Source of the DNA: a virus
Virus record (IMG/VR): IMGVR_UViG_3300027972_000007
Coordinates: 64,001-128,000 of that record
DNA: 64,000 nucleotides
Reading direction: 5' to 3' (one strand)
The position numbers were made by a program, and so were the translations under genes. Shown in pieces: positions 3,602-48,620 of this stretch. Every line of letters begins with the position of its first letter. Position 1 is the stretch's first letter. Below the pieces are notes generated by a model, which was given only the letters and a program-made list of their open reading frames with translations, did no database searches and was not told the origin of the DNA.

Positions 3602-3634
3602 TTATAATATATATTATAACGCAAAATAAGTCAA
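3602..3634 (-). promoter_or_regulatory. phage early promoter family copy
   Basis: TTGACT-N17-TATATT inside palindrome TTATAATATATATTATAA. Confidence 0.85.
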
Positions 3635-9781: not shown

Positions 9782-9814
9782 TTATAATATATATTATAGT
9801 AGAATAAAAGTCAA
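9782..9814 (-). promoter_or_regulatory. phage early promoter family copy
   Basis: TTGACT plus palindrome variant. Confidence 0.85.
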
Positions 9815-11360: not shown

Positions 11361-11448
11361 TGGTGCCCAAGACCGGACTTGAACCGGTACGGTACTAAGT
11401 ACCGAGGGATTTTAAGTCCCTTGTGTATGCCAATTCCACCACTTGGGC
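11361..11448 (-). tRNA. trnL: tRNA-Leu (UAA), CCA encoded
   Basis: GCCCAAG acceptor, AGGGA-CTTAAAA-TCCCT anticodon arm, long variable arm, GTTCAAGT T-loop, 3' ACCA. Confidence 0.97.
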
Positions 11449-11615: not shown

Positions 11616-12929
11616 CTATTCATAACGCAGCCAACTATAATTTTCTTGTATATATTTTATTGCTTCTTCTTTTGAATTAATAATTTCTTCCAGTTGTTTA
11701 TCTTCTATATCGGAAAATATAACTTTAAATATCTTTCCTTGTATAAAACCCAAACTTAATAAATCAAAACCAGTTATTAGACGAGTTGGTTTTATTTGTT
11801 CAGGAGGAATTTCATCCATTTTTTTAATTATGAAATTATAATTATCAAGATTTTTATTTGAAGCCGAACAATCGCAATAATGCAAAATTAAATGTTCGTC
11901 AAAATTAGGAATTCTAATAAATCTTTTCAATTTTGCCATTCTCATATTTTGTACGAATCTAAATTTCATGTGATTTTCAATTAATGAAACAACTCTTTCA
12001 ATAAAAGAATTTGAAAATTTCATTCTTTTTAACATTTCATTTGCCAATTTTGCTCCAACTTCGTCGTGTGAATTAAATCTGATTCTCGTATCTATATAAA
12101 AAGTATTTGGTTTTCCTATATCATGTAATAACGTACCCATTAATAATTCATCGGAAACATTAATGGGAAGATTTTCTAACGCTTGAATAGTATGTTCAAA
12201 AACATCTCCCTCAGGATGAAATTGTATTGGTTGTTGAATATTTTTTAAATTATGAACTTCGGGCAATATATATTTTAGAATATTAGTTTCATAAAGGAGA
12301 TTGAATATTTTTCTTGGTTTATGGAGCCTCAACATTTTTAATAATTCTTCTGAAATTCTTTCAACTGATATATTTACTATTTCTTCTGCATGATTTTTTA
12401 TTGAATAAAAAGTATTTGTTTCGATTTCAAAATCAAATTTTACTGCAAATCTAATTGCACGTAAAATTCTCAATTTGTCTTCCTGTATTCGTTTTTCTGG
12501 ATCGCCAATAAAACGAATTATTTTATTGTTCAAATCGTATTGACCACCAACGAAATCTATTATCTTATCTTCAATAGGATCAAAGAACATTCCGTTGATA
12601 GACAAATCTCTTCTCAAAGAATCTTCTTTCATTGAGCTGAAAGAAACAGAATCCGGTCTTCTATTATCAGTATAATTTCCATCATTTCTAAAAGTTGCAA
12701 CTTCAAATTCTGTATTATCGATTACTACTATAATAACACCAAAAGATTTTCCAACTGGAATAGTCTTATCGAAAAGTTTTTCGACTTGGTCGGGCGTTGC
12801 ATTAGTGGCAATATCTATATCATTTGATTCTATTCCGAGAATCATATCACGAACACAACCACCAGCAAACACGGCTTGAAAATTATTTTCATTTAACTTT
12901 TTTATTATTGCCAATGCTTTATTTTTCAT
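11616..12929 (-). CDS. cca: CCA tRNA nucleotidyltransferase with HD domain
   Basis: GGCVRD, DIDIAT, EVATFR, RRDLSIN, EDKLRILR, LLHDIGK. Confidence 0.95.
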   Translation of the reverse strand: MKNKALAIIKKLNENNFQAVFAGGCVRDMILGIESNDIDIATNATPDQVEKLFDKTIPVGKSFGVIIVVIDNTEFEVATFRNDGNYTDNRRPDSVSFSSMKEDSLRRDLSINGMFFDPIEDKIIDFVGGQYDLNNKIIRFIGDPEKRIQEDKLRILRAIRFAVKFDFEIETNTFYSIKNHAEEIVNISVERISEELLKMLRLHKPRKIFNLLYETNILKYILPEVHNLKNIQQPIQFHPEGDVFEHTIQALENLPINVSDELLMGTLLHDIGKPNTFYIDTRIRFNSHDEVGAKLANEMLKRMKFSNSFIERVVSLIENHMKFRFVQNMRMAKLKRFIRIPNFDEHLILHYCDCSASNKNLDNYNFIIKKMDEIPPEQIKPTRLITGFDLLSLGFIQGKIFKVIFSDIEDKQLEEIINSKEEAIKYIQENYSWLRYE

Positions 12930-12931
12930 AA

Positions 12932-12964
12932 TTATAATATATATTATAATGCAAAATAAGTCAA
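12932..12964 (-). promoter_or_regulatory. phage early promoter family copy (near-leaderless start of cca)
   Basis: TTGACT plus perfect palindrome, 2 nt from ATG. Confidence 0.85.
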
Positions 12965-13827: not shown

Positions 13828-14748
13828 TTAACACCTTATATTAGGATAATTATCTTCAAACCAATCAATTGTTTTATCTAATCCTTGCGGCAAAGGTGTA
13901 AAAGAGAATGATGGGTATAAAGAATTTAATTTTGAAACGTCTGACGGTTTTCTTTTTTGCCCATCTGGTTTTGTTTTATCAAAAATTATATTGCCTCTAA
14001 AATTCATTTTTTCTGCTATCATTTCTACTATTTTTGCAATACTTATTTCATTACCATTCGAAAATATTATCGGACTTTCTTCGTTGTAATAATTTAATGC
14101 CCACATAGATAAACGAGCTATATCAAAAGAGTATATAAATTCTCTTAATGGTTCTCCACTACCCCATATTACAAAATCTGTATTGTTCATTTTTGCTAAA
14201 TAACATTTATGAATTAATGATGGTATTACATGACCGTCTGTTAAACTGAAATTATCATTAGGGCCATATATATTAGTTGGAATTACTGTAATAAAATTAC
14301 ATCCATATTCTTTTCTATATGCTAAACTCTGTACTTCTAACATTCTTTTAGCATACGCATAAGCGAAATTTGATGGATGTGGCGGCCCATTATGCAAATC
14401 CTTTTCATTTAATGGATAATTACATTTATCAGGAAATACACAAGTAGACATAAATGAAACTAATTTTTTTACTCCTGCTAATCTCGCACATTCTAAAACA
14501 TTAAAATTAATCATAGTATTATCAGCATAAAATTTTCCTGGGCATTCACTATTAATTCCAACCCCGCCAACCTTAGCAGCAAGATGAATGATATGAGTAG
14601 GTTTGATATAATTAAAAATTGTTTTCGTTTCTTCAAAATTTCTTAAATCAACATATTTATGGGAAAGATAACAAGTGTCATAAAAATGTAATTCTTTCAT
14701 AGCATGGCCAACCAACCCATCTGCTCCTGTTATTAATAATTTACCCAT
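13828..14748 (-). CDS. fcl: GDP-L-fucose synthase
   Basis: TGADGLVG, HLAAKVGG, YAYAK, PTNIYGP, WGSGEPLREF. Confidence 0.92.
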   Translation of the reverse strand: MGKLLITGADGLVGHAMKELHFYDTCYLSHKYVDLRNFEETKTIFNYIKPTHIIHLAAKVGGVGINSECPGKFYADNTMINFNVLECARLAGVKKLVSFMSTCVFPDKCNYPLNEKDLHNGPPHPSNFAYAYAKRMLEVQSLAYRKEYGCNFITVIPTNIYGPNDNFSLTDGHVIPSLIHKCYLAKMNNTDFVIWGSGEPLREFIYSFDIARLSMWALNYYNEESPIIFSNGNEISIAKIVEMIAEKMNFRGNIIFDKTKPDGQKRKPSDVSKLNSLYPSFSFTPLPQGLDKTIDWFEDNYPNIRC

Positions 14749-14750
14749 TT

Positions 14751-15776
14751 TTAATCCTTTTTATTATATAATAATTTTTGCCATTTTATGGTTTTCTTTA
14801 ACCCATCATTTAATTTTGTAAATGTTGGATTAAATTCATTTTTTATTTTATCAATATTCAAACCCACTTCTGAAGGCGATCCGTCCAACGATAAATTAGT
14901 ATTTAATTTAACTGGTGCATTTAATATATTTCCTATATTATTTGCCAAGTCAAGAATCGAGATTTTTTCATTCCCGCCAACATTATAAAGTCTTTCTTTT
15001 CCTTCAAATAATATTTTCCACAATAATTCAATCGCATCAGAAATATATATGTATGTTCTTTTTGCTAATCCTAAATCTAATAATTGAATTTTTTTCTTGA
15101 GTATTGCATTTCTAATAAATGTATTTAATACTCTCTCGTCATTTTTACGAGTCCCCATACCATACGCTAAAGCAAGTCGAATACTTTTTACATCAAAATT
15201 ATCTTTATAATTATCTACTATTGTTTCACCGCATCTTTTACCTTCAATGTAACATGCCCTCGGATGATATGGGTCGCTTTTTCCAATATTCTTTTCTTCA
15301 GGATTTGTATATAAAAGTCCACTATACACTTCACTCGAACTTAAGAAAAGAAATTTTCCATTACTTTTTAAATTTTCAAAAAGATTGAAAAGAACTGAAG
15401 TATTCAATTTCAATGTTTTTATTGGATCAGCAAGAAATTTTCCTGGTTGCCCATAAGTGGCTGCATGTATAATAATATCATAATGTGAGTTACATTTTTC
15501 AATAGTTAAATCAAAAGAACTAACATTACATGAGCTAAAATTATACAAATCTTTCAATTGTTCGTTTCTATTAATCGCTCTTACAATAAAATTACAATTA
15601 TATTTCTTGTTTAAAACATGTAAACACGCAATTAAATTAACGCCAATTAAACCACTTGCGCCAGTTATTAATATTGATTTTTCATTAATATTATTAACAA
15701 ACAAATCAACATTATTATCAACTATCTTTTCTGCTTCAGCATAAATCATTTTACTCAATATATTCATATTACTCAT
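14751..15776 (-). CDS. NAD-dependent epimerase/dehydratase (UDP-glucuronate decarboxylase-like)
   Basis: TGASGLIG, SSSEVY, YIEGK. Confidence 0.85.
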   Translation of the reverse strand: MSNMNILSKMIYAEAEKIVDNNVDLFVNNINEKSILITGASGLIGVNLIACLHVLNKKYNCNFIVRAINRNEQLKDLYNFSSCNVSSFDLTIEKCNSHYDIIIHAATYGQPGKFLADPIKTLKLNTSVLFNLFENLKSNGKFLFLSSSEVYSGLLYTNPEEKNIGKSDPYHPRACYIEGKRCGETIVDNYKDNFDVKSIRLALAYGMGTRKNDERVLNTFIRNAILKKKIQLLDLGLAKRTYIYISDAIELLWKILFEGKERLYNVGGNEKISILDLANNIGNILNAPVKLNTNLSLDGSPSEVGLNIDKIKNEFNPTFTKLNDGLKKTIKWQKLLYNKKD

Positions 15777-16478: not shown

Positions 16479-17357
16479 CTATAATTTGATTAGTTTTTCT
16501 ATCTTTTCTTTAATATTTTGAACTGTAAATCCATATTCTTTATCATGTTCTTCTTTAGTACCATATTTATTTGAAAATATTAACGGCATTCCAATATAAT
16601 CAATTACTATTGGTTTTGGATAAACTGCTTTCATTATTTTAGTTGATAATGATCCTTCATAAAATGGCTCACAAATTAAAAATTTATTAGAATTTAAAGA
16701 ATGTAATATTTCAAAATCAAAAGGTTTTAATGTAGTATAATATATTATTTTTACTGATAAATCTTTTGTTGCTTCTATTACCATATCTAAAATATTACCA
16801 GTTACTATAATACTCACATCTCCAGTATTTTTAATTAAATTAGCTTCGCCAAAATTAACAATATTATCAAAACTATTTTTGTAATCACTCAATCTAAAAA
16901 ATGTTGGGAAACCATTATTATAACTTTGGTGAAAAAGTGTATCAAATTCTTTACTGGTTCCAGGAACTACAATTTGCATATTTGGCAAATTCATTAATAT
17001 GCCAACATCTTCAGGACAATGATGAGTGGAGCCTAATGAAGCATAATCGTAAGAAGAACCAACCCCAACAAAATTACCATTTAATTTTTGGTAACAAAAA
17101 TCTAATTTCAATTGTTCAAATGCCCTATCAATCATAAATGGAGTTATTGTATGAACTATTGGAATGAAATTAGTTAAAGATAGACCTGCAGCAACAGAAA
17201 CCATAGATTGTTCGAGTATACCAATATTATATGTTCTATTAGGATAATCTTTAAAACAATTTCTAAATCCAAAGACGCCAATATCACCCAAAAGAAGAAC
17301 TATTTTTTTGTCTTCTTTCATTAATGATTCGACTGTTTTAATAAATTGTTTACGCAT
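16479..17357 (-). CDS. transketolase C-terminal (pyrimidine-binding) subunit
   Basis: MRKQF, NIGILEQ, RAFEQ, GSTHH; start moved to 17357. Confidence 0.9.
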   Translation of the reverse strand: MRKQFIKTVESLMKEDKKIVLLLGDIGVFGFRNCFKDYPNRTYNIGILEQSMVSVAAGLSLTNFIPIVHTITPFMIDRAFEQLKLDFCYQKLNGNFVGVGSSYDYASLGSTHHCPEDVGILMNLPNMQIVVPGTSKEFDTLFHQSYNNGFPTFFRLSDYKNSFDNIVNFGEANLIKNTGDVSIIVTGNILDMVIEATKDLSVKIIYYTTLKPFDFEILHSLNSNKFLICEPFYEGSLSTKIMKAVYPKPIVIDYIGMPLIFSNKYGTKEEHDKEYGFTVQNIKEKIEKLIKL

Positions 17358-17548
17358 TATTTTTCCGATATGTTTGTCAGTTTTTTTCCACATCTTTTAC
17401 AAAGACTATTTTCTTTAGCGCAAGAAGGACATGGCTGATTAACCCAACCAGCCCAATATCTACCATGTTTTTCGCACAAACCATCGCCTCGAATGGACGG
17501 AATTTGCCATTTCTTTTTACATCTATCACAAATAAGTTCTATACCCAT
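17357..17548 (-). CDS. small Cys-rich Zn-finger protein
   Basis: Multiple CxxC. Confidence 0.65.
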   Translation of the reverse strand: MGIELICDRCKKKWQIPSIRGDGLCEKHGRYWAGWVNQPCPSCAKENSLCKRCGKKLTNISEK

Positions 17549-18409: not shown

Positions 18410-19237
18410 TTAATACGTTCCATTTTTATGATCCTCCGCGAGAGAAAACCCCGACCCTCGTGGTCGGGGTAGTTGACTCATTATCATTTCATATTCTTCT
18501 TTACTTGGTATTTTATGATGCCATTCAGGATTATTTTCCATCATTTTACATCTATGTCCCTTAATTGTATTTGCTATAATTGCAACAGGCAAAGTATCTT
18601 TTTTAGTAAAATTTTCAAAACAATTTATAGCATCTTTTATTTCTTTATGATTATGGCCATTTATTTCAAAACTAAACCACCCAAATGAATTAAATTTATC
18701 GACTAAATTATCAATTTCTATTGCTCTATCATTAGAGTGATTATAATCTACAATACAATACAAATTATTTAATTTATGTTGTGCAGCTATTAAAGCACTT
18801 TCCCAGATAGTTCCTTCATTACATTCGCCGTCACCAATTATCACATATACTTTAGCATTAGATTTTTTAATTTTCAAAGCTAAAGCAATTCCAACTGCCA
18901 TAGGAAATCCATGCCCTAATGAGCCAGTAGAACATTCAATTCCGGGTACTTTATTTTTATCGGCATGACCGCCAAATATACTATCATATTTCCCAAAATT
19001 TTCTAATTCGCTTATTTTAAAAAAATGATTTTTGGCTAATATAGCATAATGAGCTAATGCAGCATGTCCTTTACTCAAAATAATTCTATCTCTATTATCA
19101 TTATTAATATTTAATGGATTTATATTGCAATTTGAATAAAGAACATCTAATATATCAAGTACTGATAATGAAGATGGAATGTGCCCTTCTTTAGCATTAT
19201 ATGCCGTTTCAATAATTATTTTTATTAATTCTTTCAT
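18410..19237 (-). CDS. transketolase N-terminal (TPP-binding) subunit
   Basis: GHIPSSLS, DRIILSKGH, TGSLGHG, GDGECNEG. Confidence 0.92.
   Translation of the reverse strand: MKELIKIIIETAYNAKEGHIPSSLSVLDILDVLYSNCNINPLNINNDNRDRIILSKGHAALAHYAILAKNHFFKISELENFGKYDSIFGGHADKNKVPGIECSTGSLGHGFPMAVGIALALKIKKSNAKVYVIIGDGECNEGTIWESALIAAQHKLNNLYCIVDYNHSNDRAIEIDNLVDKFNSFGWFSFEINGHNHKEIKDAINCFENFTKKDTLPVAIIANTIKGHRCKMMENNPEWHHKIPSKEEYEMIMSQLPRPRGSGFSLAEDHKNGTY
18431..18477 (-). mobile_element. IS200/IS605-family (IscB-type) end footprint or MITE
   Basis: GTCAACTACCCCGACC-ACGAG-GGTCGGGGTTTTCTCTCGCGG; GC-rich 9-bp hairpin. Confidence 0.6.
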
Positions 19238-20502: not shown

Positions 20503-22422
20503 TTACATATTAATCATCTTAAAAAAATCACTTTCACTTAATATTTCCACTCCCAATTTTTTAGCTTTTTGGGTTTTAGAACTTACTGAATTAGGATCTG
20601 CCACAACCAAATAACTTAATCCTTTTTTAACTGATACTTCAACCACGCCGCCGTTTTCTAAAACAATATCCCACATATTTTCACGGGTTAATCTTTTTCC
20701 GTCTTCGCATCGCTGTATTGCACCAGTAAAACAAAAGGATTTTCCTTCTAAATTATTATTCATAGCCTTTTTTCTTTCTATTTGTTTAATGGTAATAACT
20801 TTCAATAATTTTTCAATAATAATTTTTTTATCATTCAATCCATTTATAATCTGATCTGCAGTTTTTTCGCCAATTCCTGATATTTTTACTAATTCTTCTT
20901 TTGATAAATTTTGTATTTTATCAATAGTATCATAACCAGATTTAATAATAGATTCGGCAGTTTTGCCCGAAAAATTTGGCATATTCAAACCAGAAATAAA
21001 TTGCGGAATTGTGATTTCTTTTTTCGAATTAATATTTTCGAGAAGTTTATTGGTTGATCTTTCACCCATTCTTTCAAGTTTTAGAATATCTTCTTTTTTC
21101 AAAGTATATAAATCTGCAGGATCTTTAATTAAAGAATGTTTATATAATTGTTCTATAATTTTATCGCCAACATCCATAATTTCAATACTGTTAATCCATT
21201 TATTAATATTGCCCAGCATCAATCCGTCACATTTCGGGTTTTTGCAAACTAAATATTCTCCTTCAATGGTTGTTTTATCATTACATATTGGACAATATAT
21301 AGGAAATTCAATTTTTTTACTTTTTTCGTCTGAAAATATTACTTTTTCGAAGTATGGAATTACATCATTGGCTCGTTTTATTTGGACTTTATCATTATAT
21401 CTCAAATTATGAACTAGAAATGTGTTCACATTATGTAATGTTACATGAGTAATATTTACTCCGCCGCAAGGAACTTTTTCTACAATTGCAACAGGTGTTA
21501 TTCTTCCAGAATTTCCTAAACTCCATTCAACATCTAACAACGTAGTTTCGGCGCTCATAGCTTCAAATTTCCATGCAATTGCTGCTTTTAAATTAGCTCC
21601 AAGAAACCCATGTTTTTCTTGTAACTTAATATTATTACATTTTATGACTAAACCGTCGATGTCATATTTTGTCTTTGCTCTCAAATAATTTTCAAAATTA
21701 TGAAAGATTTCTATAACATGTTCTTTTTTAGCTAATTCATGAAAACAGATTTTAATTTCATTTTTATCAAAAAACAAAAACTTTTCACTTTCCGAATCGA
21801 CATCAATGCCAATAATATCGTAATGAAGCACTGACAAGTATTCCGACCAGTTTCTGTCAAATCTTTTTGCAATACCATTTGCTGCATTGCGAGGATTGGA
21901 AAATTCTTTTTCTTCATTTTCTCTTTTGATTCTATTTATTTCTTCAAAATCCTCTCTTAAAAGAAATATTTCTGCCCTTAATGAACCTGTAAAATTTGGA
22001 ATATTCTTTTTCACATTTTTCATTTTCAGAACATTAGATAAAATCATTTCACCTTCTATACCATCTCCTCTTGTTGTTGCTGCTACCAGATTCCCATTTT
22101 TATAATCTAAAGAAAGCGAAGCCCCATCTAATTTATCCATAACCATATAATATTCGTCATTAATTTCATTTGCCCACTTAGTAAATTCTTCAACAGAATT
22201 TACTTTATTGAGCGAATACATAGGAATAGTGTGTTTATATTTTTTCCATTCTGTCATTTCAACATTTGCGCCAATTTGTTTAAGATAAGGATCCTCCGGG
22301 TTTATTTTTCTTAAAATATCTTTATGTATATCATATTCTTTATCACTCATTGTAGAATTTGATAAATTATAATATGCATTATCAGCTGCTATAAGAGTAT
22401 TCCTGATTTCATTTACGTTCAT
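20503..22422 (-). CDS. ligA: NAD+-dependent DNA ligase
   Basis: KLDG adenylation motif, TRGDG, NPRNAA, DGLVIK, Zn finger, HhH, BRCT. Confidence 0.97.
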   Translation of the reverse strand: MNVNEIRNTLIAADNAYYNLSNSTMSDKEYDIHKDILRKINPEDPYLKQIGANVEMTEWKKYKHTIPMYSLNKVNSVEEFTKWANEINDEYYMVMDKLDGASLSLDYKNGNLVAATTRGDGIEGEMILSNVLKMKNVKKNIPNFTGSLRAEIFLLREDFEEINRIKRENEEKEFSNPRNAANGIAKRFDRNWSEYLSVLHYDIIGIDVDSESEKFLFFDKNEIKICFHELAKKEHVIEIFHNFENYLRAKTKYDIDGLVIKCNNIKLQEKHGFLGANLKAAIAWKFEAMSAETTLLDVEWSLGNSGRITPVAIVEKVPCGGVNITHVTLHNVNTFLVHNLRYNDKVQIKRANDVIPYFEKVIFSDEKSKKIEFPIYCPICNDKTTIEGEYLVCKNPKCDGLMLGNINKWINSIEIMDVGDKIIEQLYKHSLIKDPADLYTLKKEDILKLERMGERSTNKLLENINSKKEITIPQFISGLNMPNFSGKTAESIIKSGYDTIDKIQNLSKEELVKISGIGEKTADQIINGLNDKKIIIEKLLKVITIKQIERKKAMNNNLEGKSFCFTGAIQRCEDGKRLTRENMWDIVLENGGVVEVSVKKGLSYLVVADPNSVSSKTQKAKKLGVEILSESDFFKMINM

Positions 22423-22457: not shown

Positions 22458-22490
22458 TTATAATATATATTAAATTTCAATAAAAGTCAA
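22458..22490 (-). promoter_or_regulatory. phage early promoter family copy
   Basis: TTGACT plus partial palindrome, upstream of ligA. Confidence 0.8.
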
Positions 22491-22496
22491 GAACTA

Positions 22497-22895
22497 TTAT
22501 ATATTAAGTAAATTTAAATTCATTTCACATATCATATTTGTTCTTTTATCAGAACGAAATATCATTTTTTCTATTTTTAATTTTGTTTTATCTTCAGCTT
22601 CAACGATATAATAAGATATATCCTTCGCTATATCATAAGGAAGCAATTGCTCTAATTGGTTTTTTGAAAATAATTTATAAGTAACTCTATTTTCAAATTT
22701 TTTATCAGTTAAACGAAAAAGCAAATTATCAATTCTTTTTCTTACTATTTTTAGTGCTTCTTTTTTCGAAAAAATATCAGCTTTTAAAAATGGTTTAGCA
22801 TACGCCATCAATAAATTATTATCGTGCTTTTGAAACATAACAGTATATTTAGGTACTGAATTGCCATCTCTTCCATGAAAAATAATTTCTTTCAT
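22497..22895 (-). CDS. hypothetical protein
   Basis: AAGGAG RBS. Confidence 0.75.
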   Translation of the reverse strand: MKEIIFHGRDGNSVPKYTVMFQKHDNNLLMAYAKPFLKADIFSKKEALKIVRKRIDNLLFRLTDKKFENRVTYKLFSKNQLEQLLPYDIAKDISYYIVEAEDKTKLKIEKMIFRSDKRTNMICEMNLNLLNI

Positions 22896-22907: not shown

Positions 22908-23504
22908 TTATTTGTACAAATTATGTTTATTAATATAATTAGCTACATTCTTTGATACTAATTCTTCGAACTCAATATTATGTTTAATATTTTCTCTTAT
23001 TTTTGTACTAGAAATATTGAAAATTATTTTTTTATATACTTCAAAATTAGAAGATAATTCTCTATTAATATGATACTGATCCCTTCGTATAACTAAAAAA
23101 TCAAATTCCTTCATCAATCGAACACCTTCGTACCATTTCGATTCTATTTCACACTTCCCGTTTTTCTGAAATATTAAATCAGATCCAATTATAAATTTCA
23201 ATTTAGTCTGATGAAATTCTTCTTTTAATTGTCTTAACATTAGAATCGAAAAAGTATTTGTTGAATAAACATTATTGTAACGAATAATAAATTCAGTTTT
23301 ATAATTAAAATCTCTAAATTTTCCGAATGCTAATTCAGACATATTTACTCTATGATCAGGACAAACATATTTTTTATCATTTCTTTCTCCTGATAAAATT
23401 AAAATAATTTTTTCGAATACTTCGTCGTCCATTAAATTTGATATTAATGCTTCGTGACCTATATGTGGAGGATTTGCAGAAATTCCTAATATTCCTATCA
23501 TCAT
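22908..23504 (-). CDS. nadD: nicotinate/nicotinamide-nucleotide adenylyltransferase
   Basis: SANPPHIGH (HIGH), IIGSD, ISSTKIR. Confidence 0.9.
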   Translation of the reverse strand: MMIGILGISANPPHIGHEALISNLMDDEVFEKIILILSGERNDKKYVCPDHRVNMSELAFGKFRDFNYKTEFIIRYNNVYSTNTFSILMLRQLKEEFHQTKLKFIIGSDLIFQKNGKCEIESKWYEGVRLMKEFDFLVIRRDQYHINRELSSNFEVYKKIIFNISSTKIRENIKHNIEFEELVSKNVANYINKHNLYK

Positions 23505-24331
23505 TCACCATCCCATGAAAAAATATTTTCTCTCGAAAAATTATATGGATTTTTTCTTTTAAATTCTGAATTAAAATGTCGTTCAACTACCGCATCTGGA
23601 AGAAAAAAACTATCTGTTTCAATATAATTTTGCAAAATTTTATCAACTTCTTCATATGCATTTCTACAATTTTGAAACTTTTTATTCCAGTTTGGCATTA
23701 TTTGGTCTAAATCAGAATTTGTTATACCTAATCCGTCAGTGGGAATTGCATCAATGCAATCTTTTAATCCTTCTGAATGATTAATAGAATATAAATATTC
23801 TGATAAAGTATAAACTTCAGTTTTCCAAAGTGATTGAATCATACCCAAATCACCCACATCGCCATGCAAAGTCCAAAATCCAAGCAAATATTCTGTATAA
23901 TTATCGGTAGAAAGAACAAGACCTTTTTTATCGCCTGCAATCCAATATAAATATTTCATTCTTATTCTAGCCTTTAAATTTCCTTGGGCTATTTTTGACA
24001 TTATAACATATTCTGAAACTTCAAAAACTCTCTTTTCTTCTAAATATAAATTTGTTAAATCTGCTTCTGCAAAACTTGTGCATAATTCATAACCTACCAA
24101 TCTTGCTCTTTTAATTTCATCATCTTTATTAGTTTCAATTGGTATACTTCTCCCTATTAAAGGAATATTCAATTTATCGCAAACTGGTTTTGCTATTGCA
24201 CAACATAATGCACTATCAATTCCGCCACTAACTCCAATAACCAAACATTTAATATGATGCTGTTCAATATAATTTATTAATTCTTTTCTAATATTGAATG
24301 TTAATTTTTGCATATCAATAAAAACATTCAT
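23501..24331 (-). CDS. nadE: NH3-dependent NAD+ synthetase
   Basis: GVSGGIDS, GNLKARIRM, TLHGD; no glutaminase domain. Confidence 0.93.
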   Translation of the reverse strand: MNVFIDMQKLTFNIRKELINYIEQHHIKCLVIGVSGGIDSALCCAIAKPVCDKLNIPLIGRSIPIETNKDDEIKRARLVGYELCTSFAEADLTNLYLEEKRVFEVSEYVIMSKIAQGNLKARIRMKYLYWIAGDKKGLVLSTDNYTEYLLGFWTLHGDVGDLGMIQSLWKTEVYTLSEYLYSINHSEGLKDCIDAIPTDGLGITNSDLDQIMPNWNKKFQNCRNAYEEVDKILQNYIETDSFFLPDAVVERHFNSEFKRKNPYNFSRENIFSWDGE

Positions 24332-24339
24332 AATTTAAC

Positions 24340-26019
24340 TCATTTCATTGTTACATAATATAATTTTTTATCATCAACAAACAGTACTTGCATTTGTTCG
24401 TTATATAATCTTACTGATGCATCAAAAGGACAATTTGTTATTTCTTTTCTTTTTATATTGTCAATAAATATTATCAATTTTTCATCGTCAATAGAAATAC
24501 AATAATTATTTGGTAAAACAATAAAATTCGATAAATGAAAATTTAAAATATCTTCTACCCTTATTGTATACTTTGAATGATCTGCATTAAAACAAATAAA
24601 AAATCTTAAATATTTATTTAGTTTTTCCGCAATTACAATACAAATTCTTTTATCATATTTAGCGTCTACAATTCTGTATCCATCCAATTCTTTAACATGA
24701 ATATTTACACATTTATCTTTTTCAAATGGAATTGCTAAATGACAAACCATAAAATCATCCTGAACGACTACTCCTTTAAACATTTTATATGATGAACCAA
24801 TATTGCAAATATTCTTTGTCATATGAACGATTTTACCAATACGTTCAAAAGTATTTTCTATGAGATGATTATTATTTATTGTATAAAGAATATTATTATA
24901 CCCCATCATATCTTCTGCTTGTATTGAACTAATATTACTACCATTTAAATCATAAAATGTTGCTAAATTATCTATTAATTGAACTACAAGAGGTTTGTCA
25001 TTAAAAACTTCGCACATTCCAGTCAAAAATGATTTTGCAGATTTTTTTATTGCAAAAACATTTTTATTATTATCATAAATTCCTTCTGATGTTAAAATAT
25101 AACGTTTATTATTTAAATAAAAAATACTTCTTATCTGTTTTTCCATTTCAACAATTTCTTTTATGATAAAATCATCAGAACTTCCAATCTTTCTAGTTAT
25201 AATTCCAGAAACAGTATCGTCTGCGAATGGAGGTATTGATCTTTCATTTTTTTGAAATACTAATTTATACCAATCTAATTGTGCTTTAGGAATAACTGAA
25301 AAATCCTGGCATATTTTAGGAAGAATTACATCTTTATCAAAAACTGAAATTCCTAAATCCATCCTTTTACTCCATTCGTCGGGCTTAAATTTTGGGTGTT
25401 TACCTTTATAAGGATGGATTCCAGTATACATCTGAAACGTAACAACAGCCCATGCAAACCAATCAGATAATTCTGTAAATTTATCTGTCGTTCTGTCTCG
25501 TATTGATTCCATAATTGCATTAACTTTAAAATTTTTTGTCTGCCACGAATCAACATCAATATGAAAAACTGTTGTTATCATCTTATCAAGAAGAAAATTC
25601 ATTTCATTATAATCAACTACTAAAATTTTATTATCATGAATATACTGTAACGTTTTTTGCATTTCTGTTATTAATGAAACAATATTTGTCTGATTTATTC
25701 CTTTACTGTCTTTGAAATTTTTTGTAAAAATTTGACAAAGAAATTCAATATCTTTGACAAATTTCATAGTAAATCCTATAGGTTTATTTGTCGTATAATC
25801 ATATAATGTAGATATTGGACCTAAAATATTATCGCGTTTCAATTCACTTAATTCTTGAATTTTAGCTTCTGGTATCATTTTTTGTGGGTCGTGGTATATT
25901 TTATACGCTAAATCTCCCTTACAAAAAACAACTCCCTGCCCACCTGCTGCTTTATATTCTTTTTCAGTAAGAGTTATGATATTTTTTTTATCGGTGACTT
26001 TGTATGTTGTTTTATTCAT
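24340..26019 (-). CDS. Ser/Thr protein kinase, TerY-P (YegI-like) type, with C-terminal beta-rich domain
   Basis: GGQG loop, AYKIY, VDYNEMN, IDVDS, SDWFA...HPYKG. Confidence 0.88.
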   Translation of the reverse strand: MNKTTYKVTDKKNIITLTEKEYKAAGGQGVVFCKGDLAYKIYHDPQKMIPEAKIQELSELKRDNILGPISTLYDYTTNKPIGFTMKFVKDIEFLCQIFTKNFKDSKGINQTNIVSLITEMQKTLQYIHDNKILVVDYNEMNFLLDKMITTVFHIDVDSWQTKNFKVNAIMESIRDRTTDKFTELSDWFAWAVVTFQMYTGIHPYKGKHPKFKPDEWSKRMDLGISVFDKDVILPKICQDFSVIPKAQLDWYKLVFQKNERSIPPFADDTVSGIITRKIGSSDDFIIKEIVEMEKQIRSIFYLNNKRYILTSEGIYDNNKNVFAIKKSAKSFLTGMCEVFNDKPLVVQLIDNLATFYDLNGSNISSIQAEDMMGYNNILYTINNNHLIENTFERIGKIVHMTKNICNIGSSYKMFKGVVVQDDFMVCHLAIPFEKDKCVNIHVKELDGYRIVDAKYDKRICIVIAEKLNKYLRFFICFNADHSKYTIRVEDILNFHLSNFIVLPNNYCISIDDEKLIIFIDNIKRKEITNCPFDASVRLYNEQMQVLFVDDKKLYYVTMK

Positions 26020-26861
26020 GATTTAGTAAATACTTGTTTGTTAAAAATTGTAGAAATTGAAACATCGTCATAATGTGTCCACAAATTCTCTATTGATTTT
26101 TTAAAAAATGACATTCGTTTTTTAATAAACTCGCCCGTTGTTGATTTAAAATTTATAATTTGAGGAACAATTTTAGAAATTTCTATTGAATTTTTATTTA
26201 AATCTCTATATGAACAAACACCATCAGAACAAATTGTTAAAGAAACAAAATCTTCCGCGTATTTTGAATGAAAAATATATGGCGTGAAAAATTCAAATTC
26301 TTCATATTCTTTTTCTATTTTTGAATCAAAACCCGAAATATGCGTTATTTCATAATTAACTTTTGGAACGATTGATCGATTAATTAGTGCGTCTGAATAA
26401 TCATCTTTATTTGTTGACAAATAAAATGGCATATTATTTGGATAATCTATTTTTGTTATTTTAATATTATTATTTTTATCTTTTAAAATTACCAGCCCGT
26501 CTCCCCAAGCAAAAACATAAATATCATTTTCTATTTGTAGTGAAATAAGCAATGTAGCTTGTAATGATAATGAAGAAACTGAATATAATTTATGTAAAAC
26601 GTCTGCTCTTTTTAAAATACTATTACCCAATAATCTAGATAATGTTTGTTCTGAACACTCTTTAAACAAACCGGCTTTATAATAAAGTATTAAACAGCAT
26701 TTTGCTGCATGGCATAAAATTTGAGCCCCAATTTCAGAATATTCTGCTGACGAACACCCATCAGAAATAATTCCGTATGTCATTTTATCTACAGTTCCAT
26801 GCAATACATAATCTTGGCAAACTAAATGTGAATTGCCAATTTCAGAATATGAATCAATCAT
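26016..26861 (-). CDS. PP2C-like protein phosphatase (YegK-like)
   Basis: HLVCQD, SDGCSS, GDG, CSDG, DDVS. Confidence 0.88.
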   Translation of the reverse strand: MIDSYSEIGNSHLVCQDYVLHGTVDKMTYGIISDGCSSAEYSEIGAQILCHAAKCCLILYYKAGLFKECSEQTLSRLLGNSILKRADVLHKLYSVSSLSLQATLLISLQIENDIYVFAWGDGLVILKDKNNNIKITKIDYPNNMPFYLSTNKDDYSDALINRSIVPKVNYEITHISGFDSKIEKEYEEFEFFTPYIFHSKYAEDFVSLTICSDGVCSYRDLNKNSIEISKIVPQIINFKSTTGEFIKKRMSFFKKSIENLWTHYDDVSISTIFNKQVFTKS

Positions 26862-26917
26862 ATTTTCTCCTAAATATAGGTCTTTATATTCCTATAAAAA
26901 CCCATATAAATTTCGTA

Positions 26918-27694
26918 CTAAAATTTAAAATCTATTGGCTGGGATGCTCCGCCAGTTCCGAGTGCTTGAGACGTCGAAGAAACACTTTGTGAAATAAATT
27001 GTGCTAATTTAGCCAATTTCTTTTCGGAAACTTCGCCGACTGAAATATATTCATCTATTCCAGCATCATTTTTAAAAGTTTCTAAACACTTTTTAAAATG
27101 AGGATCGGTATCATTAACACCAATTAAAATGACCTTAATTGACTCCATCACCTCTTCTTTTTTTATTGCATTAATTGCTTCTTTCACGTCTGAAGTAAAA
27201 GATTTTGACGCATTGTCGTCGCCGTCAGTAATAACAAAAATAATGGCATTGGCATTAAAAACATTTTCTCCGTCATACAATTTTTTTGCATAATCTCTTG
27301 TCGTGTCAATTGCTTCGAGAGTTGCATCATACAGCGGAGTACTCCCACTTGGCTGAATAGTATTTTTAAAATTTACTGTATCTATTGTACTCAACAATGT
27401 AAATCCATGTATTTCTTCAATATCGCTATTGCGTCTGCCTGAATTTGCACTAAATGCGGTTGTTCTTGCAAGAAGATTTAAAGATCTCGGAGATCTTTTG
27501 CAAGATTCCATACAAGCTATTAACATCTGTTCCAACAAATCTTTAAACGGTTCAACCGAACCGGTTTTATCAACGACATTAGTGACAAAAGTGTATTCTG
27601 TTGCGCCGAGTTTATCAACAGAAATAGTAGTATAACCAAAACCTTGAAGGGTCTGGCTAACTTCGGTTGCATCAACTCCCATTAATTTTGGCAT
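26918..27694 (-). CDS. vWA domain protein (TerY-like)
   Basis: DKTGS MIDAS, TPLYDA, ITDGDDNAS. Confidence 0.88.
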   Translation of the reverse strand: MPKLMGVDATEVSQTLQGFGYTTISVDKLGATEYTFVTNVVDKTGSVEPFKDLLEQMLIACMESCKRSPRSLNLLARTTAFSANSGRRNSDIEEIHGFTLLSTIDTVNFKNTIQPSGSTPLYDATLEAIDTTRDYAKKLYDGENVFNANAIIFVITDGDDNASKSFTSDVKEAINAIKKEEVMESIKVILIGVNDTDPHFKKCLETFKNDAGIDEYISVGEVSEKKLAKLAQFISQSVSSTSQALGTGGASQPIDFKF

Positions 27695-27744
27695 AAAATT
27701 TCCTCCAATTAATTTTTAAATGTTATTAAAATTTACTTTTCAAT

Positions 27745-28569
27745 TTAAAAGAATGATGTCGTCGTGGAAATCTGCATTCCTTTTTGTTTGTACTCATCGA
27801 TGAAACTTTCTCCCATAAACTCACAACCAGGAACATTCGACGTCGCATCTTTAAGCAACACAAATTTCTTAATCTGGTCTGCAGAAAATTCAGAAAAAAC
27901 ATCGCGCATTGTATTTGCAAAACAGTGAGATAATGCTTCGCCTGCACCGAGAATAACATCATATTTTTTCAATATATTAATAAAAGGGGTATTTAATCTT
28001 GTCAATGGGTCATTAGGATCTTCGACATCGGCTTTCACTGCGCTATAATGTTCTGTAAAAGGATTTGATCCTTTTGTTGTTCTTGGCGCAACAGCATGAA
28101 ATCTATCTTCCCATTGATCTACTGCTTGTAGAAAAACAGATTCCAAACATTGTCCTGGTGAGCCAATTATACAATGTTCAGGCCAAATCATCAGTTTATA
28201 ACGCTTATTGTCGTCCAGAGCTTTCAAATATTTGAGATATCTTGCTTGAAAATCTGGATTATATGCTCTCCAATCACCTTTTTCAGCCATTTCATAAGTT
28301 AAGAAAGTAGGAACTGTGCTGCCTGAATTTAAAAAGATTGGCAGTGGATGCTTACCAGAATTATTTACCCAACATCTTGCATGTGCAATGTGAACCTTAT
28401 AATGACTATCCATCGTAATTTGAATTTCTTCAATATCGTCTCCATATTTTTTAATCATGGTTGCCAATCTCTTCATGTCTTCATCTGCACCAGGCACAAA
28501 CAAATTACCTTTTGGATTGCAGAAATCAAATTGTGGGTCGATTACCAACAAACAAACCTTTTTATTCAT
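27745..28569 (-). CDS. pncA: nicotinamidase / isochorismatase-family cysteine hydrolase
   Basis: IDPQFDF, DSH, WPEHC, TKG, ALSHC (D-K-C triad). Confidence 0.88.
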   Translation of the reverse strand: MNKKVCLLVIDPQFDFCNPKGNLFVPGADEDMKRLATMIKKYGDDIEEIQITMDSHYKVHIAHARCWVNNSGKHPLPIFLNSGSTVPTFLTYEMAEKGDWRAYNPDFQARYLKYLKALDDNKRYKLMIWPEHCIIGSPGQCLESVFLQAVDQWEDRFHAVAPRTTKGSNPFTEHYSAVKADVEDPNDPLTRLNTPFINILKKYDVILGAGEALSHCFANTMRDVFSEFSADQIKKFVLLKDATSNVPGCEFMGESFIDEYKQKGMQISTTTSFF

Positions 28570-28592
28570 ATCAACTCCTTTAAAAGTTTTTA

Positions 28593-29765
28593 TTAAAATA
28601 TTTTCAAAATTTGTTTACATAGTTTTATTGTTTCAATATCGCCAGTATTTTTATTGGGGTCGTCTGATAATTTAACTGATTTTACCCATAAACCATCAAC
28701 CACACATTCAGTTAATTTAATAACAATATTTAGTGGTTTTGCTCCCACATCATTGGTAAACCATGTACCAACTCCATAAAAATCGTTTATAAAACCATTA
28801 CATGCTTTATGAATTACAGAAATTTGTGAAACACTTTTTAAATTATCTGAAAAAACTATTTGTTTCGTCTGCGAATCAATACTCAAATTATGATACTTCG
28901 AAATTATTTTTCTAGCAAATTCTATCGGATCGCCGCTATCTTGTCTAACTCCATCAAAAATTCTTGCATATAATGAATCAAAACTATTTAAAAAATTATT
29001 AGTAGTAAAAGTATCAGGTAAAGCAATACCTAAATTTCCTTTATAAACATCTACCCAATTTTTCATCGCCATTCGATTTGCCCACTGGAACCCGAAGCGT
29101 GCTGCATGAAATTGAGTCCATTCATGTGCTTGAGTTCCTATAGGTAATATATCAAATTCTTTTGCGATACTTAAATTGCTCGACCCAAATAAAAAATTTC
29201 CATGCTCAATAAAATCTCTAACAACATTAAAATGATTATTATAAGAAAATCTTCTTCTAGTACCAAAATCTGTAATAACAACATCAAGTTTATTTAATTC
29301 TTTTGCTTTTCTCTTATTATATAATCTCAAATCTTCTGCAGATTTTTGTGTTCCTGCAGTTTTTTCAAAATAAAGTTGAGATATAGTTGCCATTAAAGGC
29401 ACTTCCCAAAGAATAGTTCTATACCAGTAACCTTCGATATGAATTTTTAATTCTGAACCAACTTGTTCGATTATTACTTCGCTCGGATCATATTCATAAC
29501 CATCGAGAAAATCTAAATAAAATGGATTTAAATAATAACATTTCTGTCTTAAAAACTTCTTTTCTTCTTTTGTTAATTTAATTCCTCTGAAAGTTTCAAC
29601 TATTCGTTTTAATTCGTCTGCAAAACCATTAGGAAATGATCTATTATCCCTATTAAAAAATTCATATCTTACTACTTTATCTGGATATAATTTGCATACT
29701 GCATTTTGCATTGTAAATTTATATAAATCATTATCTAAAAAATCATTCACATATCCATTACTCAT
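28593..29765 (-). CDS. pncB: nicotinate phosphoribosyltransferase
   Basis: DLYKFTM, DFGTRRR, GTQAHEW, RQDSGDP, FSD. Confidence 0.95.
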   Translation of the reverse strand: MSNGYVNDFLDNDLYKFTMQNAVCKLYPDKVVRYEFFNRDNRSFPNGFADELKRIVETFRGIKLTKEEKKFLRQKCYYLNPFYLDFLDGYEYDPSEVIIEQVGSELKIHIEGYWYRTILWEVPLMATISQLYFEKTAGTQKSAEDLRLYNKRKAKELNKLDVVITDFGTRRRFSYNNHFNVVRDFIEHGNFLFGSSNLSIAKEFDILPIGTQAHEWTQFHAARFGFQWANRMAMKNWVDVYKGNLGIALPDTFTTNNFLNSFDSLYARIFDGVRQDSGDPIEFARKIISKYHNLSIDSQTKQIVFSDNLKSVSQISVIHKACNGFINDFYGVGTWFTNDVGAKPLNIVIKLTECVVDGLWVKSVKLSDDPNKNTGDIETIKLCKQILKIF

Positions 29766-29797: not shown

Positions 29798-29992
29798 TTA
29801 GTAATCGAATTTTCCAGTTAATTTAGTATATAATTTACGTAACAAATCGATTTGGTTGGCTATAACGTTGGGATATAGAGAACCGACCATCATACTTTTT
29901 AGTTCCGTTCGCGCTTTAATTTCTTCTTTGATTTTTTCTGGTTCTGTTAATCTTAAAGCGTTTTCGATTGACAACGTTTTTGGTAATGCCAT
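29798..29992 (-). CDS. small hypothetical protein
   Basis: GAGGA RBS. Confidence 0.7.
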   Translation of the reverse strand: MALPKTLSIENALRLTEPEKIKEEIKARTELKSMMVGSLYPNVIANQIDLLRKLYTKLTGKFDY

Positions 29993-30007
29993 GATTTTAT
30001 CCTCATC

Positions 30008-30325
30008 TTATAGTATTGTAACATCAAAATCTTTAAAATGCTGCGACATAATATATGCAGTAAAAGCTATTTTATATTCATTTTCGATATTTGAAGTTAA
30101 TAAAGCTCTTAAATATCTCATTATTTTTTTCTTATCTTCAAATTCAGGTATTAAAATATCTATATGATCTCTTGTTAATTTTTCCTTTATCCATAAAGAA
30201 ACAAATTTATTCCATTTATTATTTTTTGTTTTAAATGTATGCGGAATTTCTTCATATTTTAATGTATATAAAGATTCGTTACCACAAATTACTGACCAAT
30301 TATCGACATCTTTAATTTCTATCAT
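30008..30325 (-). CDS. hypothetical protein
   Basis: GAGGA RBS. Confidence 0.75.
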   Translation of the reverse strand: MIEIKDVDNWSVICGNESLYTLKYEEIPHTFKTKNNKWNKFVSLWIKEKLTRDHIDILIPEFEDKKKIMRYLRALLTSNIENEYKIAFTAYIMSQHFKDFDVTIL

Positions 30326-30498
30326 TCAATCCTCATAAACATCAATTCCACAAATATTTTCGTCTTGCCATTGAAATTTGAAAATGTATATTGTATTATT
30401 ATATTTTATTTTTATTTCTTCTGTTGGATATGCAACTTTTTTAATTACTGTTCTAAAAATAGAAAAAAATTTTGAATGTTCATTAACAAAAATTTCTT

Positions 30499-30717
30499 TC
30501 ATGATATTTTCTTTTTCTTGTTCTTTTTTAAAACAATTTTTTCTAAATCAGTTATTCTCTTTTTAAGTTTTTTAAACTCTTCTTGAATTACATATAACGA
30601 TCCGAGCATTTGATTAGATTGAATTGGAGGATCTGGAAATAATTCCGGAGCTTTATATGGATTTTTTTCCACACGAAGTTTCATACACTCTTCATTTGCT
30701 TTTTCTATTAAAGTCAT
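30499..30717 (-). CDS. hypothetical early protein
   Basis: AAACAGGAG RBS behind promoter. Confidence 0.75.
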   Translation of the reverse strand: MTLIEKANEECMKLRVEKNPYKAPELFPDPPIQSNQMLGSLYVIQEEFKKLKKRITDLEKIVLKKNKKKKIS

Positions 30718-30755: not shown

Positions 30756-30788
30756 TTATAATATATATTATAAAAAGAAATAAGTCAA
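30756..30788 (-). promoter_or_regulatory. phage early promoter family copy, upstream of the NAD/TerY-P operon
   Basis: TTGACT plus perfect palindrome. Confidence 0.85.
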
Positions 30789-41341: not shown

Positions 41342-42295
41342 TTACCTTTCATTACATTTTTCTATTTCATATTGTCGAATAACTTTTTTAATGCCTTCAG
41401 TTATCGTTATTTTTTGCTGCCAACCAAGTTCAATTAAAGGTGAAATATCACAATAAAAATCATCAATACCAACAGCTTTATGAAAATCTGGTGATTCAAC
41501 TATTTCGACTTTACCTTTTCCTGATTCTTTCAAAATAATATCGACTAAATTTCTTAAAGAAATAGACCTGCCATAAGAAACATAATAAATTTGATCTAAT
41601 GAATTTCTACCTTTTTGTTCTATTATTTCTAATGCGCTAATCACATCATCAATATAGATATAATCCCTTTTTATTTTACCGTTATCATACAGTTTTATTG
41701 TATCATTACTAACTGCTAACCATATCATTCTATTAAATGCTGCTTTTTTATTATTAGTATTTTGTTCCCCAATTCCGAAAACATTTGATAATCTCGCAAT
41801 TTTAGTTTTTAAACCAAATACTCTTGCGTATGTATTAATAATATGTTCTGCACATAATTTAGTTGCACCATATAAACCTAATGGATTTTCTTTGATTCTA
41901 TCAGTTACTGGCAATATTTCAGGATTCCCATTAACAAAAAAAGTACTCGTAAATATTATTTCTGCTTCTGGATTATGATTTCTACATGCTTCTAATAATG
42001 CTATAGTACCAAGAATATTTGTTTTTACGTCTATATATGGTTTATCAAAAATATTATAATTATCAACCGTAGAAGCGCAATGGAATATTTTATCAATTCC
42101 TTTTATATCGCATTTTTTAATATTTCTAACATCTTTTTCTATTACATTTATTTTATCTTCAAATCCTTGCAGATTATTTTTTGGACTTTTTCGAGTAATA
42201 ATAGTTACATTATGTCCTTTATTGATATATTTTTTGGCTAAATGTGAACCTATAAAACCTTTTCCGCCAGTAATTAAAATATTCATTTTATCCAC
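41342..42295 (-). CDS. NAD-dependent nucleotide-sugar epimerase/dehydratase
   Basis: TGGKGFIG, YGATK, RDYIY. Confidence 0.9.
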   Translation of the reverse strand: MDKMNILITGGKGFIGSHLAKKYINKGHNVTIITRKSPKNNLQGFEDKINVIEKDVRNIKKCDIKGIDKIFHCASTVDNYNIFDKPYIDVKTNILGTIALLEACRNHNPEAEIIFTSTFFVNGNPEILPVTDRIKENPLGLYGATKLCAEHIINTYARVFGLKTKIARLSNVFGIGEQNTNNKKAAFNRMIWLAVSNDTIKLYDNGKIKRDYIYIDDVISALEIIEQKGRNSLDQIYYVSYGRSISLRNLVDIILKESGKGKVEIVESPDFHKAVGIDDFYCDISPLIELGWQQKITITEGIKKVIRQYEIEKCNER

Positions 42296-48587: not shown

Positions 48588-48620
48588 TTATAATATATAT
48601 TATAATAAGAAATAAGTCAA
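48588..48620 (-). promoter_or_regulatory. phage early promoter family copy facing the cassette array
   Basis: TTGACT plus perfect palindrome. Confidence 0.85.

Follow-up and report, generated by a model that had tools for sequence, protein, structure and literature searches.

Depletion of nicotinamide adenine dinucleotide (NAD+) is a major antiphage strategy. Among the phage pathways that counter it, NARP1, composed of Adps (similar to phosphoribosyl pyrophosphate (PRPP) synthetase) and Namat, and NARP2, composed of Nampt and Nmnat, are two-gene amidated routes with experimentally proven counter-defence activity, and NARP3, composed of PnuC and NadR, was added in 2026 (PMC13464706). The three proven answers are all short amidated routes, and the deamidating route is known from annotation alone. 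The huge phage 5-SewaE is annotated with four enzymes leading from nicotinamide to NAD+ (PMC10747093), and ‘NAD-jumbo phages’ with Preiss–Handler clusters and a phage pncA were reported in 2024, Kuafu_71 carrying pncB-nadD-nadE (PMC11662467). Here, a related locus was analyzed in a 64,000-nucleotide stretch of viral DNA (the window), which corresponds to bases 64001-128000 of the 170,170-bp IMG/VR record IMGVR_UViG_3300027972_000007 (CheckV completeness 74%). At positions 22908-29765, minus strand, it carries genes for PncB, a nicotinamidase-like protein, NadE and NadD, all four where an initial annotation had placed them. Absent from that account were the genes for a vWA-domain protein, a PP2C-type phosphatase and a Ser/Thr kinase (24340-27694), which lie between the nicotinamidase gene and nadE and fill more than half of the interval.

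Compared with the annotated huge phages, the enzyme content is similar, since there too PncB, NadD and NadE, with PncA in some, are clustered beside NAD+-consuming genes, although in those phages they are sequence annotations only. The passages of the two papers that were searched contain neither a vWA/PP2C/kinase triad nor a linkage of such genes to a nicotinamidase, whereas here the triad sits inside the operon. The initial annotation had proposed a distinct four-enzyme route; it cannot count as newly seen, since such sets were already annotated in those genomes (PMC10747093, PMC11662467). It had also given NARP1 and NARP2 as the known counter-pathways; their description as two-gene amidated routes is right, and the list has since grown by NARP3. 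Like NARP1-3, the locus is phage-encoded and its route ends in NAD+, and nicotinamide as the starting compound is shared with NARP1 and NARP2, but here a four-step deamidated route is predicted, together with a signalling triad. No Pribosyltran_N domain and no Adps-like, Namat-like, Nampt, PnuC or Nudix gene was found in the record (74% complete), in agreement with the earlier claim of a distinct route: it differs from NARP1 by the lack of Adps-like and Namat-like genes, and from NARP2 by the lack of Nampt.

The second group of related systems comprises the TerY-P modules. According to PMC10542128, vWA/PP2C/kinase triads can accompany restriction systems or act as defences on their own, and the TerY-P kinases described end in a zinc ribbon (classical form) or an OB fold (defence form). 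As in TerY-P (a TerY-like vWA protein with a PP2C phosphatase and a Ser/Thr kinase; Anantharaman 2012 and Gao 2020, both cited in PMC10542128), the three genes of the window are co-operonic, with intact catalytic residues and an intact metal ion-dependent adhesion site (MIDAS). They differ from the described TerY-P modules in that the kinase ends in a β-propeller, where those have a zinc ribbon or an OB fold, and in that they are constantly paired with a nicotinamidase-like enzyme and not with a restriction or tellurite-resistance system. The triad can be said, by analogy, to follow a TerY-P logic without being a demonstrated TerY-P member. Finally, bacterial pncA-pncB salvage operons are reportedly under NrtR control, as Rodionov is said to have described in 2008. 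A nicotinamidase and a nicotinate phosphoribosyltransferase (NAPRTase) are shared with those operons, and NrtR is adjacent in many bacterial loci of the present family, but the nicotinamidase belongs to a distinct subfamily of about 265-280 aa and the triad is placed between it and the remaining genes. A literature search retrieved no paper linking a nicotinamidase or isochorismatase to a vWA/PP2C/kinase triad or to TerY-P, and in the searchable text of two phage surveys from the Aravind laboratory PncA, isochorismatase and PP2C are unmentioned, the uses of vWA being unrelated. At the level of predicted gene content, the four-enzyme route is known as annotation, and the nicotinamidase/vWA/PP2C/kinase cassette was found described in no paper.

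The linkage of these genes was studied in 80 viral and 80 bacterial loci with nicotinamidase relatives, searched with the window proteins; counts were limited to those in which the flank on either side measured 4.5 kb or more (71 viral, 38 bacterial). The vWA gene follows the nicotinamidase gene in 70 viral loci, all three triad genes are present in 67, and a single locus has none of them. For the bacterial loci, the corresponding numbers are 27, 21 and 11. The usual arrangement, on one strand, is nicotinamidase, vWA, PP2C, kinase, with a median gap of 34 nt between the first two. In total, at least 125 viral contigs carry the cassette, as do at least 589 bacterial genomes of the species-representative set that was searched. 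Since all three genes are present in 67/71 viral loci, their presence in the operon as a chance insertion was ruled out.

The downstream enzymes behave differently. Within 10 kb of the nicotinamidase, PncB was found in 29, NadE in 16 and NadD in 2 of the 80 viral loci, and PncB in 16/80 bacterial loci. When 46 whole viral records were searched, 26 had a NAPRTase, 25 had NadE and 18 had NadD. Of the 15 viral records at least 90% complete that contain the nicotinamidase, PncB, NadE and NadD occur together in only 4-5, and none of them occurs in three, while the triad is nearly always present. Based on these linkage and whole-record counts, the conserved unit is the four-gene cassette nicotinamidase/vWA/PP2C/kinase, and PncB, NadE and NadD are frequent but optional companions. 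The focus therefore moves from the four-enzyme set, which did not emerge as a conserved unit from this survey of phages, to a tighter one, in which a distinct subfamily of nicotinamidases is firmly coupled to a putative switch of kinase, phosphatase and vWA protein. The complete arrangement of the window is not unique, as a complete 470-kb phage (L002), with a nicotinamidase 65% identical, has the same order of pncB, nicotinamidase, vWA, PP2C, kinase, nadE and a NadD-like gene.

To describe the surroundings of the cassette, the open reading frames (ORFs) of all 160 loci were clustered and the recurrent clusters annotated. Several seemingly conserved ORF clusters were discarded, as they were antisense or alternate-frame shadows of cassette genes. 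NrtR, a Nudix-type regulator of NAD metabolism (NUDIX plus NrtR winged helix), was found in 29 loci, in many Acidobacteriota directly upstream and on the same strand. A Nudix gene lies directly upstream of the cassette in 13 viral loci, PRPP synthetase is encoded in 8 loci and NMNAT-like genes in 11 viral loci, and 11 loci (7 viral, 4 bacterial) encode PARP-like proteins no more than a few kb away from the cassette. Given these neighbours, the cassette is surrounded by genes of NAD/ADP-ribose metabolism in bacteria as well as in phages, in support of a genuine function in the salvage of nicotinamide. The PARP-like proteins, with WGR, PARP regulatory and catalytic domains (for example L038:1564-2880, and in L003, L010, L099 and L103), consume NAD+ and release nicotinamide, and they are thus encoded close to an enzyme of the nicotinamidase type.

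The nicotinamidase-like protein itself (274 aa, P0001; 27745-28569, minus strand) was assigned by structure and by invariant residues. Its AlphaFold2 model, with a predicted local distance difference test (pLDDT) score of 94.6 and a predicted template modelling (pTM) score of 0.91, shows an isochorismatase-like α/β fold, and the ten best PDB matches in Foldseek are all nicotinamidases, with 2wta, 2h0r, 1ilw and 3r2j at the top (E 1e-14 to 1e-10). In an alignment of 28 sequences, Asp11, Lys166, Cys216, Asp54, His56, His60 and His132 are invariant. In yeast Pnc1, the profile of this alignment places Asp11, Lys166 and Cys216, the presumed Asp-Lys-Cys catalytic triad, on the motifs VVDMQ, DKG and EYCV. 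The metal ligands (Asp54, His56 and His132) fall on DWH and WPVHC in the same yeast protein and on WPPHC in PncA of M. tuberculosis. In solved nicotinamidases, the Asp/His/His metal site binds the pyridine nitrogen, and it distinguishes nicotinamidases from the other enzymes with an isochorismatase fold. Over 1,200 homologues, 260-280 aa in length, were found. Classical PncA lacks two features of the protein, an insert of about 65 residues (positions 64-127), which is conserved, and an extension at the C-terminus. The 274-aa protein is accordingly accepted, from sequence comparison and the predicted model, as a long-form nicotinamidase-like enzyme of a separate subfamily, outside the curated PncA boundaries.

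These same boundaries are the basis for a different assignment, an isochorismatase-fold hydrolase with another substrate, in which case the pathway would begin at nicotinate as a plain Preiss–Handler route of PncB, NadD and NadE. No Pfam match was obtained for the protein, PF00857 included, and with NF008623 (cut-off 174) it scored 24.4 bits, in a match confined to the first 60 residues; the insert and the C-terminal extension are also unlike classical PncA. Nevertheless, the metal site and the catalytic triad are both invariant, the ten best structural matches all have the nicotinamidase function, and adjacency to PncB and NrtR is recurrent, so this assignment is considered quite improbable.

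With regard to distribution, megablast against deposited phages gave nothing, and tblastn found the nicotinamidase in no cultured phage, the matches being the uncultured huge phages LR756511, LR745208 and LR756500 and one short fragment. In a tree of 149 nicotinamidase sequences, the bacterial clades track taxonomy and the viral sequences are interleaved; 16 label changes are needed, at least six of them forced by well-supported branches. The gene has therefore moved repeatedly between phages and cells.

The three genes of the triad follow the nicotinamidase gene in the usual order. The vWA-domain protein (258 aa; 26918-27694, minus strand) gave 21.5 bits with the Pfam VWA model, below its cut-off of 23.8, and 10/30 relatives match VWA, with a best E of 9e-10. 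Its MIDAS residues D42, S46, T119 and D157 are invariant among the 30 relatives. The Ser-rich C-terminal tail is conserved as well, S235, S237 and S251 being invariant. The phosphatase (281 aa; 26016-26861, minus strand) matches Pfam PP2C_2 with 55.4 bits, and its five metal-binding Asp residues (D34, D121, D213, D265 and D266) are invariant in 30 relatives. In the kinase (559 aa; 24340-26019, minus strand), the kinase domain covers residues ~1-265, with a Pkinase match in 27/30 relatives and invariant G26 and G27 of the Gly loop, K40, D136...N141 of the catalytic loop and D155. The C-terminal ~290 residues (~268-559) are conserved and were modelled as an all-β propeller with a pLDDT of 92.3, for which Foldseek returned WD40/BamB-type matches at a template modelling (TM) score of ~0.5. 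Profiles built from the vWA and PP2C alignments matched no solved structure by sequence. In PADLOC, which presumably includes TerY-P models, neither the vWA protein nor the phosphatase matches a model and the kinase gives a weak PD-T4-6 match only.

The presence of such a triad raises the possibility of a TerY-P-type conflict module, in which the amidase would be the effector and, when triggered, would remove nicotinamide (for example, denying it to competing phages with NARP1 or NARP2) or act on another amide, with PncB, NadE and NadD as mere neighbours from the same metabolic island. Triads of this kind in restriction accessories and stand-alone defences (PMC10542128) are consistent with it, as are the complete phages that carry the cassette without PncB, NadE and NadD and the repeated transfer indicated by the interleaved viral and bacterial copies. 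On the other hand, the vWA and PP2C proteins have no PADLOC defence model and the PD-T4-6 match of the kinase is weak, the kinase has a β-propeller where TerY-P kinases have a zinc ribbon or OB fold, and the adjacency of NrtR and PncB in bacteria points to NAD supply. In addition, the removal of nicotinamide is not obviously toxic. A conflict module is thus regarded as improbable.

Confirmation of the four pathway enzymes by hidden Markov models, which had been suggested with the initial annotation, was obtained for PncB and NadE, which score above their cut-offs, but not for NadD, which falls below, or for the presumed PncA, which fails the curated models. PncB (nicotinate phosphoribosyltransferase, 390 aa; 28593-29765, minus strand) scores 406.7 bits with NF003704 (cut-off 379) and 370.5 with TIGR01514 (cut-off 269.55), in addition to the Pfam NAPRTase and NAPRTase_N domains, and is the sole NAPRTase-family gene of the whole record. 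NadE (276 aa; 23501-24331, minus strand) reaches 121.4 bits with TIGR00552 (cut-off 63.65) and matches Pfam NAD_synthase; it is a single-domain, NH3-dependent NAD+ synthetase with the PP-loop SGGIDS (SGGxDS type) at residues 35-40 and without the CN-hydrolase (glutaminase) domain. The nicotinate-nucleotide adenylyltransferase of NadD type (198 aa; 22908-23504, minus strand), the only such gene in the record, is matched by nine NadD models, far more strongly than by archaeal NMNAT models. It keeps the motifs HIGH (HxGH) and ISSTKIR (ISSTxxR); by sequence, either nicotinic acid mononucleotide (NaMN) or nicotinamide mononucleotide may be the preferred substrate. Beyond a 132-aa ORF, nadD is followed by ligA (639 aa; 20503-22422, minus strand), as previously noted; the encoded NAD+-dependent DNA ligase scores 484.1 bits with TIGR00575 (cut-off 444.45) and has the Pfam adenylation, OB, HhH and BRCT domains.

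The predicted gene set would be sufficient on paper for the conversion of nicotinamide into nicotinate, NaMN, nicotinic acid adenine dinucleotide (NaAD) and NAD+, and in this sense the complete deamidating set claimed at the outset stands. The associated proposal that the glutaminase-less NadE reuses the NH3 released by PncA is balanced in stoichiometry, but it is not a conserved design, since the NadE frames of about half of the related phages are long, of the size of glutaminase-fused enzymes. No Nudix, PRPP synthetase, Nampt, PnuC, PARP, Macro or second NAPRTase-family gene was found in the 170-kb record, absences that are provisional, as the record is incomplete (74%). The lack of a PRPP synthetase and of an ADP-ribose Nudix hydrolase, noted earlier for the window, thus extends to the whole record.

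A split transketolase is encoded on the minus strand at 16479-17393 (N-terminal TPP-binding domain, 275 aa) and 18410-19237 (pyrimidine-binding and C-terminal domains, 304 aa), with two function-unassigned ORFs between them. Since the record has no PRPP synthetase, this enzyme could supply ribose-5-phosphate toward the PRPP needed by PncB.

With proven phage precedents at hand, the operon may be read, in line with the initial annotation, as dedicated counter-defence, rebuilding NAD+ from the nicotinamide freed by SIR2, TIR and other NADases; the triad would then fire the pathway on the appearance of cleavage products. NARP1, NARP2 and NARP3 show that phages rebuild NAD+ against such defences, the neighbourhood of the cassette in relatives holds genes of ADP-ribose/NAD turnover (Nudix, PARP-like, PRPP synthetase), and an NAD+-dependent ligase adjoins the operon. 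However, four steps costly in ATP and PRPP are slower than the two-step routes, and neither ADP-ribose recycling nor a PRPP synthetase is encoded in the record. Moreover, the bacterial cassette is chromosomal, NrtR-linked and apparently vertical within families, and therefore looks like homeostasis more than an arms race. Counter-defence is considered a reasonable possibility at somewhat less than even odds, and it would be a refinement, at the level of purpose, of the reading favoured below and not an exclusive alternative to it.

The favoured reading, to which a probability of roughly 0.6 is given, is that of a phage operon for NAD+ salvage in which a TerY-P-like phospho-switch controls the entry step. 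It builds on the identities of the genes, whose catalytic residues are intact, on their conserved linkage and on a neighbourhood with an NAD theme, all of which are observed. The long-form nicotinamidase would convert nicotinamide into nicotinate, from which PncB, using host PRPP, would form NaMN; NadD would adenylate NaMN to NaAD and the NH3-dependent NadE would amidate NaAD to NAD+. The NAD+ made would be consumed by LigA and other NAD+-dependent phage enzymes. As for the switch, the kinase may sense a ligand or a protein via its propeller and phosphorylate the vWA protein, perhaps on its Ser-rich tail, or the nicotinamidase itself, and PP2C would reset the phosphorylated target, so that the triad would turn the entry of nicotinamide into the pathway on and off. 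The substrate, the phospho-target, the direction of regulation and the benefit, either counter-defence or general NAD+ supply, are the parts of this scheme that we infer.

Several points weigh against a gated salvage operon. The failure of the curated PncA and isochorismatase thresholds makes another pyridyl amide possible as the substrate of the 274-aa protein, and NadD, with 97.6 bits in TIGR00482, is below the cut-off of 112.45. PRPP must be supplied by the host, since the record has no PRPP synthetase. The three near-complete phages with the cassette and without PncB, NadE and NadD imply a cassette function independent of a phage-encoded downstream pathway. Triads of TerY-P type are otherwise tied to defence systems (PMC10542128), and a conflict role may thus apply. 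In addition, a search of sequencing runs found the stretch in freshwater-sediment DNA assemblies only and in no listed RNA run.

In a wider form, the cassette would be an undescribed phospho-regulated gate of nicotinamide salvage used by bacteria, beside NrtR, and by huge phages, with a phage form that senses NAD+ breakdown and switches on the four-step deamidating route; this generalization is tentative and, as a whole, rather doubtful. It would add a fourth kind, a regulated one, to the three NAD+ reconstitution pathways described, and would assign to a TerY-P-like triad its first metabolic output. If the switch does control the entry of nicotinamide, such triads would gain a concrete biochemical output, and NAD+ salvage would prove open to post-translational regulation in bacteria and phages.

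Regarding transcription, nine co-directional genes lie on the minus strand in and around 22908-29765. They are tightly packed, with 4-nt overlaps between the PP2C stop and the kinase start and between nadE and nadD, and a gap of 8 nt between the kinase gene and nadE. Four small function-unassigned ORFs (72, 58, 105 and 64 aa; 29798-30717, minus strand), none with a Pfam family above cut-off, precede pncB. Ahead of them, in one of the few intergenic gaps, a promoter-like site TTGACT-17 nt-TATATT was found at 30760-30788 (minus strand), in agreement with the presumed early promoter previously placed at 30756, and its motif recurs above chance. The extended motif TTGACTTATTT...TATAATATATATT has six exact copies, all on the minus (coding) strand and intergenic where checked (3606-3634, 9786-9814, 12936-12964, 22462-22490, 30760-30788 and 48592-48620). 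Allowing up to one mismatch, 11 matches were obtained versus 2.5 expected, and 0/100 shuffles reached 11. The copies probably represent host-σ70-type promoters of a class that belongs to the phage itself. A generic σ70 scan was discarded as promoter evidence, as it gave 81 sites versus 80.8 expected and is uninformative in AT-rich DNA (GC content of the window ~26%).

The copy at 22462-22490 is directly upstream of ligA, which therefore has its own promoter-like site. Given this placement of the recurring motif, the transcription unit starting at 30788 probably comprises the four small ORFs, pncB, nicotinamidase, vWA, PP2C, kinase, nadE, nadD and the 132-aa ORF (22497-22895, minus strand), which is the final gene ahead of the next promoter copy. 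This last ORF gave no match in Pfam, NCBIfam, PHROGs or PADLOC, and no homologue of it was found in the 160 related loci.

The source is a large, probably jumbo, uncultured phage, considering the size of the record, its origin in a freshwater-sediment metagenome and the phage genes of the window, which include a T4-type clamp loader and a tRNA nucleotidyltransferase. Three NAD-dependent sugar-nucleotide epimerase/dehydratase genes are located on the minus strand, at 13828-15776 and 41342-42295. A radical-SAM gene and a HAD hydrolase gene lie close to them; together they look like a sugar-modification island that is likewise NAD+-dependent. Between 45900 and 48350, about 2.4 kb with ~42% GC stand out in this 26% GC genome, containing short ORFs only and without an Rfam match. 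A single tRNA gene, tRNA-Leu(UAA), is present at 11361-11448 (minus strand) and adjoins the tRNA nucleotidyltransferase gene (11616-12929).

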